DNA of 64,000 nt from Patescibacteria group bacterium. Its GTDB lineage: Bacteria; Patescibacteriota; Minisyncoccia; Phycocordibacterales; Phycocordibacteraceae. The stretch spans positions 65,182 through 129,181 of the forward strand of contig JAUPKX010000007.1 of NCBI GenBank assembly GCA_030837225.1, given 5' to 3'. Below the pieces are notes generated by a model, which had not been told where the DNA came from, did not search any database, and was given only the letters and a program-made list of their open reading frames with translations. Both the position numbers and the translations under genes were made by a program. This document shows, piece after piece, positions 1-39,240 of the stretch (within the stretch, counting starts at the first letter, position 1; each line of letters starts with the position of its first letter).

Positions 1-2
1 GT

Positions 3-191
3 CTTGAGGAAATTCTTGCGGTGCTCATGTCGGAAGATTCTTCGTCACTGGATATTAAGAAACTGAAAGGAGTCGATGATGTATACCGAGTACGAACCGG
101 AGATTTGCGAGTCATCTTCCAAAAGCAAGGTGGAGAGATTCGGATTCTCGAGATAAGCCAGAGAGACGAGAGCACATACAAGAAATACTAA
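3..191 (+). CDS. RelE/ParE-family type II toxin, 3' fragment (5' end lies outside the window)
   Basis: Frame-3 translation ...DIKKLKGVDDVYRVRTGDLRVIFQKQGGEIRILEISQRDESTYKKY* matches the conserved C-terminal core of RelE/ParE toxins (LKG..YRxRxGDxRxIY...IxIL.I..R). No start codon in the window; a hairpin terminator follows. Confidence 0.5.
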   Translation, partial: LEEILAVLMSEDSSSLDIKKLKGVDDVYRVRTGDLRVIFQKQGGEIRILEISQRDESTYKKY

Positions 192-204
192 TGCTTGAAC
201 CAAA

Positions 205-238
205 AGACCGCCCTGTGAGCGGTCTTTCCTTGTTTCTG
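205..238 (+). terminator. rho-independent terminator after the toxin fragment
   Basis: agaccgc-cctgtga-gcggtct stem-loop followed by a T-rich run. Confidence 0.45.
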
Positions 239-243
239 AACGT

Positions 244-320
244 TGGCGCGGTCGAAGGGACTTGAACCCTCGGTCTCCGCCGTGACAGGGCGGCGCTTTA
301 ACCAGCTAAGCTACGACCGC
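244..320 (-). tRNA. tRNA-Asp (anticodon GTC), CCA encoded
   Basis: Minus-strand read GCGGTCGTAGCTTAGCTGGTTAAAGCGCCGCCCTGTCACGGCGGAGACCGAGGGTTCAAGTCCCTTCGACCGCGCCA folds as a cloverleaf. Acceptor GCGGTCG/CGACCGC, D-stem GCTT/AAGC, anticodon stem CCGCC/GGCGG, loop CTGTCAC. Confidence 0.9.
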
Positions 321-321
321 A

Positions 322-1023
322 TTATTTGTCAAGTCTTAAAACTTGTATCGCTTTTTCTAGTTTCTCCCGCTTTCGCGGCAGAGACAGGTCAGAGACTTCA
401 GCAGTATGATACATGAGGCGATAGAGTGCAAGACTGTCATGATGACTGAACTTCAACTCAAATCCGCTTGCAGATTTCTTACAGAAAGACCCTCCTCGTA
501 CACCATATCTTCTGAGTGCCGTGTGCAGTGACTGCAAAAAGCTCAGAGACCCAGATGTAAATAGCGTGAGCAGTACCCACCGTTTATAGCTTCGATCTGC
601 ATACTTGAGCTCACTAAAGTATACACACCCATCTCCATCGAAATACCCGCGCACGAAATGGCCTATATACTTCTGTGGAATATTTGGGAACTCAAGCGCA
701 TTGCTTTTGTGTTGTCTAAAACCTAGTGCTGCAAGATCGGTAAACCACTCTTTACTCCCTATCTGCAATCGATACAGCTGCTTCCAATGTTTTTTGTTCC
801 GCGCATCCGGAGTACGTTCTGCAATCTTATGATTTGAACCGATTGCGCGCTGAATTTGTTCAAGCACTATTCGATCGGTGATATTAAACTCAATGAAGTA
901 CCCGCCCCTCTTATTTGCAAGCATCGAACCATCGGCAGCAAAGAATCCAAGAACATACGCCATATTCGATGACCATGTCTTGAAGAAATCTTGATTTAAG
1001 GTTCGAGCCAGCGCCATACACAA
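322..1023 (-). CDS. LAGLIDADG-family homing endonuclease, double-motif monomeric type, free-standing
   Basis: 233 aa with two dodecapeptide motifs (VLGFFAADGSM and VRGYFDGDGCVYF) about 100 aa apart, typical of single-chain LAGLIDADG enzymes. The stop codon abuts the tRNA-Asp 5' end. GC content is lower than the flanks. Confidence 0.8.
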   Translation of the reverse strand: MCMALARTLNQDFFKTWSSNMAYVLGFFAADGSMLANKRGGYFIEFNITDRIVLEQIQRAIGSNHKIAERTPDARNKKHWKQLYRLQIGSKEWFTDLAALGFRQHKSNALEFPNIPQKYIGHFVRGYFDGDGCVYFSELKYADRSYKRWVLLTLFTSGSLSFLQSLHTALRRYGVRGGSFCKKSASGFELKFSHHDSLALYRLMYHTAEVSDLSLPRKREKLEKAIQVLRLDK

Positions 1024-1085
1024 AGCATATCACCACAACAGGACTATACTCTACCCATATCCCCCAAGCACTACGAGACTTTACT

Positions 1086-1160
1086 TGGTGCCGGTGGGTG
1101 GAGTCGCGCCACCGTCTAGGGTTTATGAGTCCCTCGTTCTAACTCTTGAACTACACCGGC
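1086..1160 (-). tRNA. tRNA with anticodon CAT (elongator Met or lysidine-modified Ile2), CCA encoded
   Basis: GCCGGTGTAGTTCAAGAGTTAGAACGAGGGACTCATAAACCCTAGACGGTGGCGCGACTCCACCCACCGGCACCA. G1-C72 is paired and position 11:24 is a Y:R pair, both elongator-like. The anticodon loop is CTCATAA. The T-loop CGCGACT and an A31/A39 mismatch are unusual. Confidence 0.75.
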
Positions 1161-1194
1161 GATACAAGCACCATACTATAGTGACCGAGCTGAT

Positions 1195-1893
1195 TCAACG
1201 TCCAAACACCAGAAGTGCTGCCTCTGCTTTCTGTAGGTCCTCGGGTGCAGTTACTTGTATCCAGAATGAGGCCTGTACTGCAGCAAGGGAGATTCCAGAC
1301 TCCTTAGATGCAGCGAGGACCGTTTGAGGGAGACCGTACTCATTGCTTCCAAGGGCTTTGGGCACCATGGGGTACTCGAAGAGGCGAGGGTCGAGCGCGA
1401 GCATATTCGTGTTCATGAGACCAGGCTTTCCTGTATGATCCCCTTCTTCAATATCGACGATGAAGCCACGCTCATCCATAACCATACGTCCCCCAGAAGC
1501 CATGGTCTCGGTCTTCTCAACGAGCACACTCCACTCTGGAGACGCAAAGCATGCCTCCACATCTTTGCGTGCGTAAAGATCGTCCCCCATCATCACAATG
1601 AATCGGTCTGACAGAAATGGTCGTGCGAGCCAGAGCGCACCTGCTGTGCCATTCAGGTCTTCCTGCTCAACGTATCGAATCCTGCGTCCACCAAACTCAT
1701 CCTTGAAGTACTCGCGGATAACATTTCCTTGATACCCGATTATGAGAATGACTTCTGTAACCTCAGGAGGAAGCGCATCGAGTTTATGCTCAATAAGAGT
1801 CTTTCCGTTAACGACGAGCATGGGTTTCGGCACTGACTGTGTCAGTTCCTTCATACGCGTGCCTTTTCCGGCGGCGAGGATGACAGCTTGCAT
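1195..1893 (-). CDS. sugar-phosphate nucleotidyltransferase (NTP_transferase family)
   Basis: N-terminal ILAAGKGTRM signature (G-x-G-T-R) and a Rossmann-like fold pattern. Confidence 0.75.
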   Translation of the reverse strand: MQAVILAAGKGTRMKELTQSVPKPMLVVNGKTLIEHKLDALPPEVTEVILIIGYQGNVIREYFKDEFGGRRIRYVEQEDLNGTAGALWLARPFLSDRFIVMMGDDLYARKDVEACFASPEWSVLVEKTETMASGGRMVMDERGFIVDIEEGDHTGKPGLMNTNMLALDPRLFEYPMVPKALGSNEYGLPQTVLAASKESGISLAAVQASFWIQVTAPEDLQKAEAALLVFGR

Positions 1894-1986: not shown

Positions 1987-3120
1987 ATGATACCCAAAGG
2001 CCTCTGCGGACTCCTACTCGGCGTACTGTTATTTGCTCCTATACTTGCAACGGCACAAGAACCCTCCGAGAACGCATTCCCTACTGTCGAGCAACAGCGT
2101 CTTTTGAAGGCTCGCGTGCTTGAAGCCTCCCCTTCTTTACAAAAGGTAGTAGAGGGCACGAGTATAACAACCGACACCCAGTCTCTCACCATTGAAGTCC
2201 TCGAAGGAGAAGATGAGGGACGTACCGTTACCTTCGAGAATGACTTCACCCAGCTTGAGAAAGGAGACGTGTTTTATGTGCGGCACATTGTAGGAGGATT
2301 CGATCTTGAAACGTGGGCCGTATCCGATCCCTACCGACTCAACATTCTCCTTTGGATCGGTATCGCGTTCCTTGTTTTGGTGTCTCTGTTTGGAGGTATT
2401 CAGGGCATTCGAGGAGTTGCCTCTCTTGCAGGAAGTCTTGTCCTTATCTTCTATCTCCTTTTACCGAGCATCCATAACGGCATCTCTCCTATCCTGGTCT
2501 CGCTTGGCGTAGTCTCGCTCATAATCCTTGTTGGTTCCTATATAACGCACGGCGTGAACCGAACGACGACTGCTGCCATGCTTGGTATGGTGGCGACCAT
2601 TGTGATAACGGGTATCGCTACCTATTTAGCTATTGACCTAGCACAGCTCTCTGGATTCACCTCTGACGAAAACGTCTACCTAAACTTCAACACGGATGGA
2701 CGTATCGATATGGTTGGTCTCCTATTCGGCGGAATCATGATTGGTCTTCTTGGTGTTCTCTATGACAGCGCCATTGGGCAGGCTGTAGCCGTTGAGGAGC
2801 TATACCGTGCGAGCGCAAACTACACGCGAAAACAAGTCTATCTTCGGGGGCTTCGTATCGGCCGCGAGCACATCGGGGCACTCGTAAACACTCTTGCGAT
2901 TGCGTACGTTGGTGCTTCACTTCCCCTTCTCCTCCTTCTCAAGCAATCAACCGCAAGTCCTCTCTATCTATTAAATAGCGAGGTCTTTGCAACAGAGATT
3001 ATTCGCATTCTCATGAGCTCTATTGGCATCATCCTCGCGGTTCCTGTTACAACCTTGATTGCCACCTACATGCTGAAAGGTGCTCAAGCATCGGGACTAC
3101 ACTCGCACACAAAAGAGTAG
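1987..3120 (+). CDS. YibE/F-family polytopic membrane protein
   Basis: Multiple TM helices and the characteristic YibE/F layout. The ORF opens at 1888, but the signal/TM segment begins right after Met-34 (1987). The start is uncertain. Confidence 0.6.
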   Translation: MIPKGLCGLLLGVLLFAPILATAQEPSENAFPTVEQQRLLKARVLEASPSLQKVVEGTSITTDTQSLTIEVLEGEDEGRTVTFENDFTQLEKGDVFYVRHIVGGFDLETWAVSDPYRLNILLWIGIAFLVLVSLFGGIQGIRGVASLAGSLVLIFYLLLPSIHNGISPILVSLGVVSLIILVGSYITHGVNRTTTAAMLGMVATIVITGIATYLAIDLAQLSGFTSDENVYLNFNTDGRIDMVGLLFGGIMIGLLGVLYDSAIGQAVAVEELYRASANYTRKQVYLRGLRIGREHIGALVNTLAIAYVGASLPLLLLLKQSTASPLYLLNSEVFATEIIRILMSSIGIILAVPVTTLIATYMLKGAQASGLHSHTKE

Positions 3121-3121
3121 T

Positions 3122-3136
3122 TGCAAATGTTTTGCA
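3122..3136. promoter_or_regulatory. candidate Fur/Zur box (TGCAAAtgtTTTGCA, a 6-3-6 palindrome) upstream of the fur-family gene
   Basis: Perfect inverted repeat 20-35 nt upstream of the start codon at 3156. Position and symmetry fit an autoregulatory Fur-family operator. Confidence 0.35.
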
Positions 3137-3155
3137 TCTATAGTACGGTGCGTAT

Positions 3156-3563
3156 ATGGATTTCCCTACCCTCCTACGCGAGAAGGACCTACGCGCTACT
3201 CCAGGTCGGCTCCAGGTGCTCGAGATACTTTCCTCAGAAAAGCATCCGGTTACTGTGGATCAGATAAAGGAGAAGCTCTCCTCGAGCCTTGATACGGTTA
3301 CGCTGTATCGCACACTCGAAACCCTAAGGGAAGCGCGTATTGTTGACCGGACCGATCTGCAGCATGGCCATGCCCACTACGAACTTCTCGTTGGACGACC
3401 GCACCATCATCACGCGGTATGTCGCTCGTGCGGATTAATCGAGGACATTGAGGTGCCGCACCCAGCAAAGCCTGAGAAACAAGCAGAACAAGCGACTAAG
3501 AAATTCTCCACAATAGATTCCTATGCACTTGAGTTCTTTGGCACCTGCACCAGCTGTGCGTAA
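3156..3563 (+). CDS. Fur-family metalloregulator, likely Zur (zinc uptake regulator)
   Basis: ATPGRLQVLEIL DNA-binding helix, His-rich HHHH patch, CxxC...CxxC zinc site. It lies immediately upstream of a ZIP transporter. Confidence 0.8.
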   Translation: MDFPTLLREKDLRATPGRLQVLEILSSEKHPVTVDQIKEKLSSSLDTVTLYRTLETLREARIVDRTDLQHGHAHYELLVGRPHHHHAVCRSCGLIEDIEVPHPAKPEKQAEQATKKFSTIDSYALEFFGTCTSCA

Positions 3564-3575
3564 TTCTTTAGTACC

Positions 3576-4322
3576 ATGATCGTCCTCCCCACTCTCGCCA
3601 GCGTCATACTCATCAGCCTCATTTCCTTCGTTGGTGCAATAACACTCGTACTAAACAAGACCCTGCTCCACAAGAGTATCTTTATACTCGTCTCTCTTGC
3701 GGTTGGCGCCCTTCTCGGAGACGTGTTCATACACATCATCCCAGAGGCATACGAAGCAATCGGAAACTCTACCCTTGTATCGCTCGCCATCATTACGGGC
3801 ATCATCATGTTCTTTATTCTTGAGAAAGCTCTGCACTGGCATCATCACACTACGGAGCACGCCGAAGAGCACGCACATCCTATTGGACGTTTGCTGCTAG
3901 TATCTGACGGCGTCCACAACTTCATAGACGGTCTCATAATCGCAGCCGGCTACATGGTTTCAATCGAAGTTGGTATCGCAACAACCATCGCCGTTATCCT
4001 TCATGAGATCCCTCAAGAGATTGGGAACTTCGGCGTTCTACTGCATGCAGGATACTCAAAGACTAAAGCGCTTTGGTTCAACTTCCTCTCTGCACTCACG
4101 GCAATTGCCGGAGCGGTTGTAGCGCTCCTTCTGGGAAGCATTACAGAACAATTTGCGATGTGGCTCCTCCCTATTGCTGCAGGCGGATTCATCTACGTCG
4201 CACTCTCGGACCTCATACCAGAACTTCATAAAAGCAACCGTGGCAGCCAAGGTGTCGTTCAGGTTATCGCCATTATCGTGGGCGTTGCTGCTATAGCAGC
4301 CCTTCTCGCGCTTGAAGCGTAG
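3576..4322 (+). CDS. zupT: ZIP-family divalent metal transporter (ZupT-like)
   Basis: HEIPQEIGNFGVLL ZIP signature, 8 TM segments, and a His-rich loop (HWHHHTTEHAEEHAH). Confidence 0.85.
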   Translation: MIVLPTLASVILISLISFVGAITLVLNKTLLHKSIFILVSLAVGALLGDVFIHIIPEAYEAIGNSTLVSLAIITGIIMFFILEKALHWHHHTTEHAEEHAHPIGRLLLVSDGVHNFIDGLIIAAGYMVSIEVGIATTIAVILHEIPQEIGNFGVLLHAGYSKTKALWFNFLSALTAIAGAVVALLLGSITEQFAMWLLPIAAGGFIYVALSDLIPELHKSNRGSQGVVQVIAIIVGVAAIAALLALEA

Positions 4323-5895: not shown

Positions 5896-8190
5896 TTAGA
5901 GCTTAGCGGTTTTTAATCGGAGTGAGTTGAGCACCACTGACACGCTTGAGAGTGCCATGGCAAGTCCCGCAACTACCGGTGAGAGAAGTATGCCAAAGAA
6001 CGGATAGAGAATACCTGCAGCAATCGGTATGCCTACTAAATTGTAGATGAAGGCCCAGAATAGGTTTTGTTTAATACCGGTCATAGTGAAGCGAGAAAGT
6101 CGTATCGCCTTCACTAGCTTTGCAATGTCGCCGTGGAGGAGTGTGATTCCTGCCGTTTCAATAGCAACATCGGTTCCGGTTCCCATGGCAATACCTACAT
6201 CCGCCTGTGCTAGTGCCGGCGCATCGTTCACTCCATCGCCTGCCATAGCAACCACACGACCGGCAGCCTGCAATGCTTTTATTTTAATAAGCTTTTCGCC
6301 CGGCAATGCCTCAGCCACCACATCATCGATACCCACTTCTTTAGCTATGGCGAGCGCTGTTTGTTTGTTATCGCCCGTAAGCATGACAACTGAAATGCCC
6401 ATGCTGTGCAGCTTCTTAATGGCCGCAGCCGCTTCGGGCTTGAGTGCATCTGCAATCAGTACCAATCCCAGCACCTCCGTACGCGTAGCCAGAAAAACAG
6501 GTGTCCTCCCCTTACTCGTATGGTTTTCAAGGGCCTTGCCATCAAGACTAAGTGTAAGGTCGCTTATTAGTCGAGAATTTCCTGCAAAGTATTCTGTACC
6601 TCTCACGAATCCCGTAACTCCCTTGCCTTCAATAATTTGAAACGTATCCGTTGCGCTTGCTGTTACACCATTATCTTTTGCGTACGCAAGAAGTGCGCTG
6701 GCAAGTGGATGTTCAGATTTATTCTCAAGCGACGCGAGAATACCGAGGATATCTTCTTCTGAACGACTGCCGTAGGTTTCTATGGCAACAACTTCCGGCT
6801 TACCCTTTGTGATCGTGCCGGTTTTGTCTACAACAACCGTATTTACACTTCTGAGCTTCTGGAGCGTAGCCGCATCTTTAATAAGAATACCCTCACTAGC
6901 TCCCTTGCCCACTCCAACAATAACGGCGATAGGCGTAGCAAGTCCGAGCGCGCAAGGGCATGCAATCACAAGAATGCCCACGAAAGACGTGAGACCGAGC
7001 GTAAGTGCCTGCGCAAAGCCGAGCACGGGGATACCAAAGAAGAGCCATGCCGCAAATACAAGAACGGCGAATACTAGGACGATAGGAACAAAGACGCTAG
7101 AGATCTTGTCCGCAAGTCCTTGAATGGGTGCCTTGCTGCCCTGTGCCTCACCTACCATTTTAATGATGCTGGCAAGTAACGTTTCTGAACCTACTTTGGT
7201 CGCCTTGAATATAAAGTGACCTTTAGTATTTAAGGTCCCAGCAACAACGGCATCACCTGCTTTTTTCTCTACCGGTATAGGTTCACCCGTAACCATTGCC
7301 TCGTCTACATAGGAACTTCCTTCCGTAAGAATGCCATCTACTGGTATCTTCCCGCCCGGCTTCATAACAATAAAATCGCCATGCACGACCTGGTCTATAG
7401 GAACCTCAACCTCTGTACCATCGCGCATGACGAGGGCCCTTTTTGCCTGAAGACCAAGAAGCTTCTGAATGGCATCACCGGTCCTGAGCTTCGATTGTGC
7501 CTCAAGATACTTACCAAGGGCGATAAGCGCGATTACTACGATGGTTACGTCGTAATAGGTCTGCTCAACATTAAGAAAAGAGCGCAGCGGCTCCTCAAAG
7601 GCAGTGAGGATAAAGCTGTAAAGAAAGGCAACGGAAGTACCGATACCGATGAGGGTATCCATATTCGCCTTTCCATAACGGAGAAAACGATAGAGGCCGA
7701 GCAGATATGGCTTACCCACCACCACCATAGTGTAGGTAGCAAAGATCGGTAAGAGGTGGTGAAAGAACTCGTACCAAATCTCTGGAATGCTACCCAACCA
7801 GCCGAACTGTGCAGTCATTTCCCAGCCCATAACAAAGACACTGAATGCAGCCAGCGGAAGTACGGAAAGAACCCTCCATCGCATGTCCTTAATCTCTGCT
7901 AACTTCTCTGTCTTAGACTGACTTAGGCCGGTATGGGCAGCGTGCTCGTCAGCCGTCATGCTCATACTTTCAGCTGAAGGTATCACGAGAGTGTAGCCAA
8001 GAGGCTTTATCAGTTCAGAAAGATGCTGAGGGTTCGTCTTCGTATCGTCGAAAGCAATCTTTGCGGTCTCGGTGCCATAGTTCACTTCAACGTGTCCAAC
8101 ACCTTCAATTTTTTTAACAGTACGCTCAATTATGCCTGCACAAGAAGCGCAATGCATACCCTTGATCCGGTACGTTTTATGATTACTCAT
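5896..8190 (-). CDS. copA: copper-translocating P1B-type ATPase
   Basis: N-terminal HMA motif [12 protein letters not shown] metal site ([11 protein letters not shown]), DKTGTIT phosphorylation motif, [10 protein letters not shown] hinge. Confidence 0.95.
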
Positions 8191-15766: not shown

Positions 15767-15847
15767 TGTCTTCTAGATTGCATCAATAGAACACTGTCGA
15801 TCGTGGATGCGCTTCGCTCTTATCTGCAGGCAAACCGTGTAATCGTG

Positions 15848-16167
15848 TTGCGGGGGCCGGAATCGAACCGGCGTCTGGAGGTTCTTTTACACCTACTGTT
15901 TCCAGAAGGAATGGACTATACCATGATCCTGAACCAGGATCCTCCCATTATAGTCTCTGAACCTTTCCCGGAAAATTCCGAGACTTGGCTGCTGATTGCC
16001 GAATCTTCTTGTTTTTCAAGCATTCACGCTCATCCTTTCGGATCACGTTGTAGCACAAGAAGCTCTAACGGTATTCCAGCAATTTAGAGAGTTTTTCCAC
16101 TACCCGTTACCGGATAGGGTCACGTTGTTCACATGAGCCTCCCGAGGTACCTCTCCTCTACCCCGCT
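15848..16167 (-). tRNA. tRNA(CAT), likely initiator-type Met, interrupted by a group I intron (exons 16133..16167 and 15848..15883)
   Basis: Joined exons give AGCGGGGTAGAGGAGAGGTACCTCGGGAGGCTCAT|AACCTCCAGACGCCGGTTCGATTCCGGCCCCCGCAA. This folds as a canonical cloverleaf: 7-bp acceptor with unpaired A1/A72, U8, D-stem GAGG/CCTC with A11:U24, anticodon stem GGAGG/CCTCC, loop CTCATAA, T-arm GCCGG-TTCGATT-CCGGC. No CCA is encoded. Confidence 0.75.
15884..16132 (-). mobile_element. 249-nt ORF-less group I self-splicing intron in the tRNA(CAT) anticodon loop, between the anticodon and position 37
   Basis: Contains the conserved group I core elements R (GTTCAGAGACTATAA) and S (ATGGTATAGTCC), giving P7 GACTA/TAGTC. 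U at the 5' splice site, terminal G at the 3' splice site, and a candidate P1 guide (GTGACCC) pairing with the exon GGCTCAT. Confidence 0.7.
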
Positions 16168-16295
16168 ATATACTGCTTCATTGAAGAAGCTCAAAAAAGC
16201 ATACCACTTTACTAAAAAGAGTACAATTCTGAGTAGATATAAGGTTATTGCATGGGGTTCATAAACCTCGAATTTTATGATGCTATTCTTGATAT

Positions 16296-16664
16296 ATGCC
16301 TCACAAGGACCCCGAGCGCGCAAAGGAGTATCACGCGAAGTATATGAAAGAAGTGTGGTATCCGAAAAACAAGGAGAAGCACCTTGCTTACGTGCGTCGT
16401 AACAAGCAGCGAGTTACAGCATTCATCGCAGCGTACAAAAAAGATCGCTCATGCACAGACTGTGGGTTCTCGGGGAAGGAATTCCCTTTTGTACTTGATT
16501 TTGACCACCTCGATGGAGGTCTCTCGAAGAAATTTACAATCGGCAGCTGGTCACACTCAGTACTCAGCATTGAAGCTATTGAAAAAGAAATTGAGAAGTG
16601 CGAACTTGTGTGCGCAAACTGTCACCGCATACGAACCTTCTCTAAGAAGGTTGTGGAGGGCTAA
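16296..16664 (+). CDS. free-standing HNH-family (homing-type) endonuclease
   Basis: C-x2-C ... FDHLDGG ... ELVCANCHRIRT (His-Asn-His beta-beta-alpha-metal motif with zinc-finger cysteines). Lower GC than the flanks. 129 nt from the intron-containing tRNA. Confidence 0.75.
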   Translation: MPHKDPERAKEYHAKYMKEVWYPKNKEKHLAYVRRNKQRVTAFIAAYKKDRSCTDCGFSGKEFPFVLDFDHLDGGLSKKFTIGSWSHSVLSIEAIEKEIEKCELVCANCHRIRTFSKKVVEG

Positions 16665-39163: not shown

Positions 39164-39240
39164 GCACCCTTAGCTCAGTTGGTTAGAGCACGGAGCTTAT
39201 ACCTCCGCGGTCCTTGGTTCGAGTCCAAGAGGGTGCACCA
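39164..39240 (+). tRNA. tRNA-Ile with rare anticodon TAT (UAU; decodes AUA), CCA encoded
   Basis: GCACCCTTAGCTCAGTTGGTTAGAGCACGGAGCTTATACCTCCGCGGTCCTTGGTTCGAGTCCAAGAGGGTGCACCA. Anticodon stem CGGAG/CTCCG, loop CTTATAC. Confidence 0.8.

Follow-up and report, generated by a model that had tools for sequence, protein, structure and literature searches.

The components of the system described here are known separately: free-standing homing endonucleases, among them SegB of phage T4; collaborative homing; LAGLIDADG genes in rRNA introns of the candidate phyla radiation (CPR); and group I introns at position 35/36 of tRNA genes. Here we analyze a 64,000-nucleotide (nt) stretch of a Patescibacteria genome, referred to as the window, in which a free-standing open reading frame (ORF) with two LAGLIDADG motifs fills the spacer between a tRNA(CAT) gene and a tRNA-Asp gene. 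It differs from these in the nuclease family, its location on a cellular chromosome, the fusion of the gene to a tRNA and the occurrence of all evolutionary stages over a whole bacterial class. A literature search found no paper on a tRNA-Asp-docked LAGLIDADG family or on its link to an intron.

SegB is a free-standing GIY-YIG homing endonuclease encoded in the tRNA gene cluster of phage T4 (PMC2330249). Its gene and the one in the window both stand free between tRNA genes, and for both there are related genomes in which the corresponding site is without the gene. The recognition site of SegB includes a conserved tRNA motif, and its gene spreads with the flanking tRNA genes (PMC2330249). SegB is, however, a GIY-YIG enzyme of a phage, whereas the protein studied here is of the LAGLIDADG type and encoded on a cellular chromosome; unlike the SegB gene, its gene is joined to one particular tRNA, with which it often has bases in common, and has a link to a tRNA intron. 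Collaborative (trans) homing has been described for F-CphI with the cyanophage psbA intron and for T4 mobE with the nrdB intron (PMC3984707, PMC6083498, PMC2790892). In these systems the intron occupies the site that the endonuclease targets and protects the genome that carries it. They concern phages, protein-coding genes and non-LAGLIDADG enzymes, in contrast to a bacterial chromosome and a putative tRNA gene target here; they also differ in that hundreds of lineages in all states are available here, and the tRNA-Asp of the window is itself without an intron. The pattern reported below would combine the collaborative and the intron-less homing schemes described for phages (PMC3984707, PMC6083498, PMC2790892, PMC2330249).

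Group I introns occur at position 35/36 of Patescibacteria tRNA-Asp and tRNA-Asn genes, the mean length for tRNA introns overall being 257 bp, and the tRNA-Asp intron self-splices in vitro without protein (Nakagawa et al. 2026, PMC13011429). They were judged barely mobile for want of internal endonuclease genes, and neighboring genes were not examined in that study (PMC13011429). The introns found next to relatives of our gene share with them the site after U35, a similar length (196–243 nt) and the lack of an ORF, but a LAGLIDADG gene lies ~25–45 bp upstream of the intron site. The LAGLIDADG genes of CPR rRNA introns, for example that of I-ShaI, come from the same radiation and superfamily and likewise persist for long at conserved RNA-gene sites (PMC11270868). 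Insertions in rRNA genes, often group I/II introns, house those genes, whose products are nearly always single-domain proteins, the majority of the LAGLIDADG_1 type and ~180 amino acids (aa) long (PMC11270868), whereas the gene in the window is free-standing, has two motifs, matches LAGLIDADG_3 and is linked to a tRNA. The monomeric two-domain fold is shared with I-AniI and bI3 (PDB 1p8k, 2ab5; Foldseek E ~1e-9 to 1e-8, TM ~0.6), but at an identity of 14–16%, and those two proteins are encoded inside the intron that they help to splice.

A LAGLIDADG family docked to tRNA-Asp

The protein encoded in the window matches the Pfam family LAGLIDADG_3 with E = 1.8e-12 and 47.8 bits (cut-off 22.5), in agreement with the assignment in the initial annotation, which had been made from the sequence alone. 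Its best PHROG match is the endonuclease family phrog_4645 (E = 6.5e-35); NCBIfam contains no model for the endonuclease family. The two motifs read LGFFAADGS and RGYFDGDGC, and their aspartates, D29 and D129, are invariant in 73/73 intact homologues. Queried with the single protein sequence, the PDB gave no match, and with a profile only a marginal one to I-MsoI (E = 0.0066). An AlphaFold2 model of the protein (predicted local distance difference test, 86.5; predicted template modeling score, 0.85) consists of two alpha-beta-beta-alpha-beta-beta-alpha halves (H-E-E-H-E-E-H twice). With this model, Foldseek returned 118 PDB matches at E ≤ 0.001, of which the top 50 all have the LAGLIDADG fold (endonucleases, the bI3 maturase and an endonuclease-bearing intein); the best are I-Tsp061I, I-AniI, I-AabMI, the bI3 maturase and I-OnuI, with E-values from 2.5e-10 to 1e-8. 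The ratio of nonsynonymous to synonymous substitution rates (dN/dS) of the ORF against relatives that are 93% and 89% identical is 0.16–0.33, and the mean column identity in the homologue alignment A1 is 68%. Predicted fold and conserved residues identify the product as a monomeric two-motif LAGLIDADG endonuclease, with DNA cleavage as its predicted activity.

Two other assignments were considered and did not fit. Domesticated LAGLIDADG proteins such as WhiA have lost the catalytic aspartates. The protein of the window keeps them, scores 22.2 bits with LAGLIDADG_WhiA, below the cut-off of 23.2, and has no extra C-terminal domain within its 231 aa. A LAGLIDADG maturase, encoded in the group I intron whose splicing requires it, does not fit either: the gene lies outside any intron, and the adjacent tRNA is without an intron in 48/79 loci, including the window.

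At E ≤ 1e-3, 3326 homologues were found, all of them stand-alone ORFs of ~208–248 aa; those with a source name are labeled as members of the Patescibacteria group (Kaiserbacteria, Pacebacteria, Minisyncoccia). The initial annotation had taken a free-standing copy inside a tRNA operon to be unusual. The opposite was found: the same arrangement recurs widely, a scan of one genome per species having placed relatives in at least 495 species genomes. The best 80 of these loci, whose products are ~42–70% identical to the window protein, were examined, and all but one, in which the ORF runs off the contig, were informative. A tRNA-Asp gene follows directly 3′ of the endonuclease gene in 79/79 informative loci, at a spacing between −86 and +110 nt. 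It was called by ARAGORN in 46/80 loci; nearly all the remaining ones contain the 5′ half of tRNA-Asp, broken after U35 by an insert that starts with AGAyGTGCAGC. Rebuilding both exons gave a final tally of 48 loci without an intron, 31 with an intron and the one off the contig. The commonest spacing is −10, with the stop codon formed by U8-A9-G10 of the tRNA, and spacings of −15 and −21 to −24 are also recurrent; overall, the ORF overlaps tRNA-Asp, with its stop codon inside the tRNA, in ~70% of the loci. The 5′ side is variable. The upstream tRNA, usually an elongator-type tRNA(CAT) that often has an initiator tRNA before it, lies 2 to >1000 nt away, and sometimes there is another tRNA or none. 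It is tRNA-Asp, and not the CAT tRNA, that is the cassette's constant partner. This arrangement explains the recurrent "hypothetical/intein-like" gene beside tRNA-Asp in CPR genomes, in whose annotation tRNA-Asp is often missed because an intron interrupts it and the ORF runs into it.

Free-standing relatives are also common outside cellular genomes: at least 569 viral contigs encode them, in most cases at a distance from tRNA genes, with an identity of 26–44% over the best aligned segment. The initial annotation, which placed LAGLIDADG enzymes normally in introns or inteins, was not supported on this point. One phage relative (31% identical; positions 3001–3685 of L280, an IMG/VR contig) is found between the tRNA-Lys and tRNA-Gln genes of a 26-gene tRNA array and extends over the 5′ end of tRNA-Gln, in a docking like that of the window; L235 is similar. 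A second gene family of ~217 aa is present near the tRNA cluster in 12/80 loci (for example L016, positions 3105–3758). Its members have an N-terminal helix-turn-helix and a LAGLIDADG-like LGLGLGLFWGEGNK motif, and give weak PHROG matches only, labeled "HNH endonuclease".

Empty sites, decayed copies and the tRNA-Asp intron

Loci that lack the endonuclease gene were obtained from a metagenome scan with a general tRNA-Asp pattern, which yielded 120 stretches, mostly from other phyla, with ~10 usable ones of the Paceibacteria type. Seven of these (L189, L191, L192, L194, L195, L127 and L179) are empty sites with the same tRNA order, namely initiator tRNA, tRNA-Met, a spacer of 40–83 nt and a tRNA-Asp without an intron; L200 is likewise devoid of the endonuclease gene. 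The comparison of empty and occupied sites suggested in the initial annotation therefore turned up both states. L195 (empty) is collinear with L042 (occupied and intron-bearing): the flanks are 72–78% identical and the tRNA-Asp exons 100% identical, and the two differ by an 867-nt as opposed to a 72-nt segment and by a 215-nt intron. L191 (empty) and L050 (occupied) form a second pair of this kind. The gene is thus polymorphic for presence and absence at the same site in related genomes. Decay is seen as well. In L123, a copy full of frameshifts and stops sits beside a tRNA-Asp whose intron has been kept, and 4–5 of the 80 loci hold copies that are otherwise well conserved but show one in-frame stop, a shifted frame or a shortened C-terminus (L014, L030, L034, L052 and L032). 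Four states coexist: loci that are empty, that have the endonuclease alone or together with the intron, and that combine the intron with a decayed endonuclease.

The divergence of the endonuclease follows that of four neighboring host genes (GatA, a membrane protein, the LigA C-terminus and GatC) poorly, with Mantel r = 0.02–0.25, as compared with r = 0.46–0.61 among the host genes themselves. Its correlation with the divergence of tRNA-Asp or of the intron, both of them short sequences, is also weak (r = 0.12–0.19). Across the family, the GC content of the ORF is on average 7.5 points below that of the flanks. We read the gene as a persistent homing endonuclease gene that is kept functional by recurrent homing and loss in the clade, and not as a host gene.

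Truncated, minihelix-like copies of the tRNA-Asp 5′ end (GCGGNNGUAAG...AUCCGCUG) were noticed just 5′ of the true tRNA-Asp in L200 (~7214–7413), where the copy is tandemly repeated, in L054 (4713–4750) and in L009 (4687–4715), and in L042 the 3′ end of tRNA-Met is duplicated ~70 nt ahead of the ORF (~3925–3945). These truncated or duplicated tRNA ends may have been left by recombination at the borders of the cassette, or may be minihelix substrates of RNase P.

The inserts in 31/79 downstream tRNA-Asp genes follow U35, are 196–243 nt long and free of ORFs, and score 35.6–53 bits with the group I intron model RF00028. They are the position-35/36 intron of PMC13011429, and in all 31 loci the endonuclease gene lies ~25–45 bp 5′ of the intron site. 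Three associations were found by tests that ignore shared ancestry. Among tRNA-Asp genes of one sequence type (GTAGCTCARYTGGTTAGAGC...CCTGT), the one that the unbiased scan sampled, 18/22 with the endonuclease gene carry the intron, as do 0/8 without that gene (Fisher p = 8e-5); among endonuclease-bearing loci, the intron goes with that type (16/20 compared with 12/51, p = 2e-5) and with a G30:C40 pair (17/28 compared with 10/43, p = 0.002). G30 is also found in 5/8 alleles that lack the endonuclease. Loci with and without the intron are intermingled in the protein tree. Around position 35/36, no clean rule was found that splits self-immune from susceptible alleles, only a statistical tendency involving G30 and the D-arm type. 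This pattern of intron and endonuclease is as expected if the target were in tRNA-Asp and if either the intron or a variant tRNA shielded the carriers, a case that is statistical in nature.

Proposed homing at tRNA-Asp and alternative explanations

On balance, we think it probable that the ORF of the window encodes an active free-standing LAGLIDADG homing endonuclease, and that its gene is a selfish cassette which targets the tRNA-Asp locus in Paceibacteria (Parcubacteria), often by collaborative homing. The address of such a cassette would be the spacer between the elongator tRNA(CAT) and tRNA-Asp, where its 3′ end would touch or run into the first bases of tRNA-Asp. A monomeric two-motif enzyme with both catalytic aspartates would cut alleles that are free of the cassette, and repair from a cassette-bearing copy, for example DNA from relatives, would insert the gene, the two conserved tRNA genes acting as homology arms. 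To judge from the statistics above, the target would be within tRNA-Asp, probably in the anticodon arm. Carriers would be protected in one of two ways, some of them by the intron and others by a variant tRNA-Asp sequence. The window would exemplify this second kind, for the endonuclease is present, the intron is absent and tRNA-Asp is of the variant type (D-stem GCUU/AAGC, pair C30:G40).

Lacking a promoter-like site of its own, the gene would be carried on the tRNA precursor. A scan found no promoter-like or terminator-like site between tRNA(CAT), the ORF and tRNA-Asp, and because of this and of the conserved abutment or overlap we favor co-transcription with the tRNAs. Read-through expression with release by tRNA processing, as envisaged in the initial annotation, is plausible on this evidence, the junction with tRNA-Asp being conserved in 79/79 loci; the processing step itself is presumed. 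Cleavage by ribonuclease P (RNase P) at position +1 of tRNA-Asp would set the 3′ end of the mRNA, in the window 1 nt past the stop codon, and in ~70% of the relatives it would remove the stop codon. Maturation of the tRNA and translation of the ORF would then compete and be mutually exclusive for any one transcript, and expression would be low. It is plausible that this competition keeps the nuclease scarce.

Several observations weigh against this reading. DNA cleavage is deduced from fold and residues, the target cannot be read from the sequence, and the meeting of a chromosomal homing gene with an empty allele is assumed. The GC content of the ORF follows that of the host (r = 0.81) and ~95% of the copies detected are intact, two findings that agree with long vertical residence but might just as well reflect a function for the host. 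Protection by sequence variation is not clean, since the G30 anticodon-arm type of the empty alleles is also that of ten loci which have the endonuclease and no intron. The association tests, which leave shared ancestry out of account, draw on just eight endonuclease-lacking loci. Finally, since the tRNA-Asp of the window has no intron, the collaborative part, the signature of which was found in 31/79 related loci and, elsewhere in the window, in the HNH ORF beside the tRNA-fMet intron, does not apply directly to the tRNA-Asp locus of the window.

A more far-reaching version, which we put forward tentatively and regard as possible, though more open to doubt than the homing cassette as such, holds that the family is the mobility engine of the "endonuclease-less" tRNA introns of Patescibacteria, by clade-wide collaborative homing in which the enzyme cuts the tRNA-Asp anticodon arm and RNase P throttles its translation. 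Collaborative homing has been proposed as a route by which mobile group I introns originate, and this proposal rests on two phage examples. If the extended version were true, Paceibacteria would provide a cellular collaborative-homing system with hundreds of natural replicates in every intermediate state, open to test, and the view of Patescibacteria tRNA introns as barely mobile (PMC13011429) would have to be revised. For meganuclease engineering, too, an enzyme family of many natural variants that may recognize a tRNA gene could be of interest. While the descriptive result is solid and useful, it is the mechanistic link to the intron that, if it holds, would make the system important.

A simpler explanation than the collaborative model is homing of the intron-less kind only. 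The target would then be the spacer together with the 5′ edge of tRNA-Asp, or the 3′ edge of tRNA-Met, and would be destroyed by the insertion; the intron would be an unrelated passenger, co-converted because it is only ~45 bp from the gene. This would account for a 3′ border of the ORF that is pinned to tRNA-Asp positions −1 to +24 while the 5′ border floats, for the tRNA-Asp 5′-end copies in L200, L054 and L009 and the tRNA-Met 3′-end duplication in L042 if these are border scars, and for the 48 loci with an endonuclease and no intron; moreover, the three allele classes are not distinct in their exon sequences around 35/36, which overlap. Empty sites, however, show no conservation of the spacer beside tRNA-Asp, which would make a poor half-site for a class-wide element, and hitch-hiking alone fails to explain the tie of the intron to the tRNA-Asp type and to G30. 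We consider this explanation unlikely.

The gene might instead encode a domesticated host protein, inherited vertically in the tRNA operon and serving as a maturase or chaperone for group I introns (in tRNA-Asp, tRNA-fMet or rRNA) or as a DNA-binding regulator. Its fixed position in 79/79 informative loci, the mean column identity and dN/dS values given above and the tracking of host GC all fit this possibility, as does the presence of I-AniI and the bI3 maturase among the structural neighbors and of another ORF-less group I intron inside the window. We nevertheless find it improbable: the gene is absent from close relatives of carriers (L195 as opposed to L042, L191 as opposed to L050), pseudogenes exist, its divergence is poorly coupled to that of neighboring host genes and both catalytic aspartates are invariant, unlike in WhiA. 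A maturase would moreover have to be reconciled with tRNA introns that self-splice in vitro without protein (PMC13011429) and with 48 loci that keep the gene although their tRNA-Asp has no intron.

Far less probable than either is a recent, unusual insertion of an intron- or intein-type LAGLIDADG gene that left behind a damaged tRNA(CAT) paralogue. The T-loop CGCGACU and the A31/A39 mismatch of tRNA(CAT) are real, and at 44.3% the GC content of the ORF is 7.8 points below the 52.1% of the window. The arrangement is, however, kept at ~42–70% protein identity over 80 species, the T-loop and 31/39 oddities recur in the clade, including loci without an endonuclease, and tRNA(CAT) scores 58 bits, well over the Rfam tRNA gathering score of 29. 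That the ORF really lies in a wrongly delimited intron, of group I or of the archaeal type, within some tRNA or rRNA gene, such as the rRNA introns in which most described CPR LAGLIDADG genes sit (PMC11270868), is hardly credible, since both flanking tRNAs are complete cloverleaves, window positions 1–1500 give no match to an intron, rRNA or other RNA model of Rfam even at E ≤ 1, and the intron of the relatives is a separate ORF-less element of 196–243 nt further downstream, inside tRNA-Asp; the initial annotation was right in calling the gene free-standing.

Organization of the locus and other features of the window

The features of the locus, which on the minus strand are ordered tRNA(CAT), ORF and tRNA-Asp, are listed below together with those of a second locus in the window.

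Table 1. Features of the endonuclease locus and of the tRNA-fMet locus; positions refer to the 64,000-nt window.
Feature	Position	Strand	Evidence
tRNA(CAT), elongator-type, upstream border of the cassette	1086–1160	−	ARAGORN; Rfam 58.1 bits
Leader between tRNA(CAT) and the ATG, 68 nt	1018–1085	−	Sequence
Free-standing double-LAGLIDADG ORF	322–1017 (ATG, 231 aa) or 322–1023 (TTG, 233 aa)	−	ORF scan
tRNA-Asp(GTC), without intron	244–320	−	ARAGORN; Rfam 72 bits
Promoter-like site TGGACG, 18-nt spacer, TATAGT	1175–1204	−	Consensus match at 9/12 positions
GC-rich hairpin directly past the tRNA-Asp 3′ end	203–227		Scored as terminator on the + strand only
Initiator tRNA-fMet split by a group I intron	15892–16123 (intron match)	−	Rfam, 68.7 bits; missed by ARAGORN
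Free-standing HNH ORF	16296–16664	+	phrog_2255, E = 8e-24; no Pfam match

The initial annotation had described a 233-aa double-LAGLIDADG ORF filling the spacer of a co-oriented tRNA pair, and its coordinates and gaps were confirmed. The stop codon is TAA, with its last base at 322, and a direct reading of the sequence places 1 nt between it and position 1 of tRNA-Asp; tRNA(CAT) is 62 nt from the TTG start and 68 nt from the ATG. The ATG start agrees with the N-termini of homologues in the alignment, and a GGTGA lies 6–7 nt 5′ of the alternative TTG. The leader shows no significant RNA fold (z-score −0.94) and no Rfam match. The promoter-like site, ~15 nt 5′ of tRNA(CAT), is the sole such site on this strand there and is a candidate promoter of a tRNA(CAT)-ORF-tRNA-Asp transcript. 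The hairpin at the other end is possibly a bidirectional terminator that closes this small operon, its role on the minus strand being presumed.

Beyond the hairpin, a short ORF (window positions 21–191) that converges on the tRNA-Asp end has a weak, sub-cut-off match to a ParE toxin (Pfam E = 0.0035); in the database copy of the contig (L001), two small genes of 79–80 aa without a Pfam match are present there. The small genes next to the tRNA-Asp end may be a toxin-antitoxin pair.

Both tRNAs of the locus stood up to the scoring that the initial annotation had recommended (Table 1). As it had noted, tRNA(CAT) has the T-loop CGCGACU and an A31/A39 mismatch, which in the Rfam alignment accompany G1:C72 and U11:A24; its suggestion that these mark a paralogue damaged by homing or repair was not borne out, since they belong to a trait of the clade. 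Non-canonical T-loops are found in 29/63 elongator-type and 11/30 initiator-type CAT tRNAs of the loci examined, including loci without an endonuclease gene. The commonest change is U55 to G (as in UGCAAGU), and CGCGACU, UCCGAUU and AUCGUGC also occur. The CAT tRNAs of the clade often additionally have D-loops without the GG pair and the A31/A39 mismatch (upstream tRNAs of L007–L086; L189, L192 and L194). An altered tRNA elbow may be a Paceibacteria trait.

Most bacteria read AUA with a lysidine-modified CAU tRNA. The window contains a tRNA-Ile with the anticodon UAU (39164–39240; ARAGORN; Rfam 69.6 bits), which raises the question of whether the CAT tRNA upstream of the ORF is a tRNA-Met or a tRNA-Ile2.

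The initial annotation had further proposed that the window holds two homing endonuclease families, both associated with CAT tRNAs. The second family is indeed there, in the form of an HNH gene next to the intron-bearing tRNA-fMet, but the association with CAT tRNAs does not extend to the LAGLIDADG gene, whose constant partner is tRNA-Asp. The HNH ORF is ~120 nt from tRNA-fMet and divergent to it, the pair spanning window positions 15846–16664. Together with the tRNA-fMet intron, it is the second pair in the window in which an endonuclease gene lies by an ORF-less tRNA intron.

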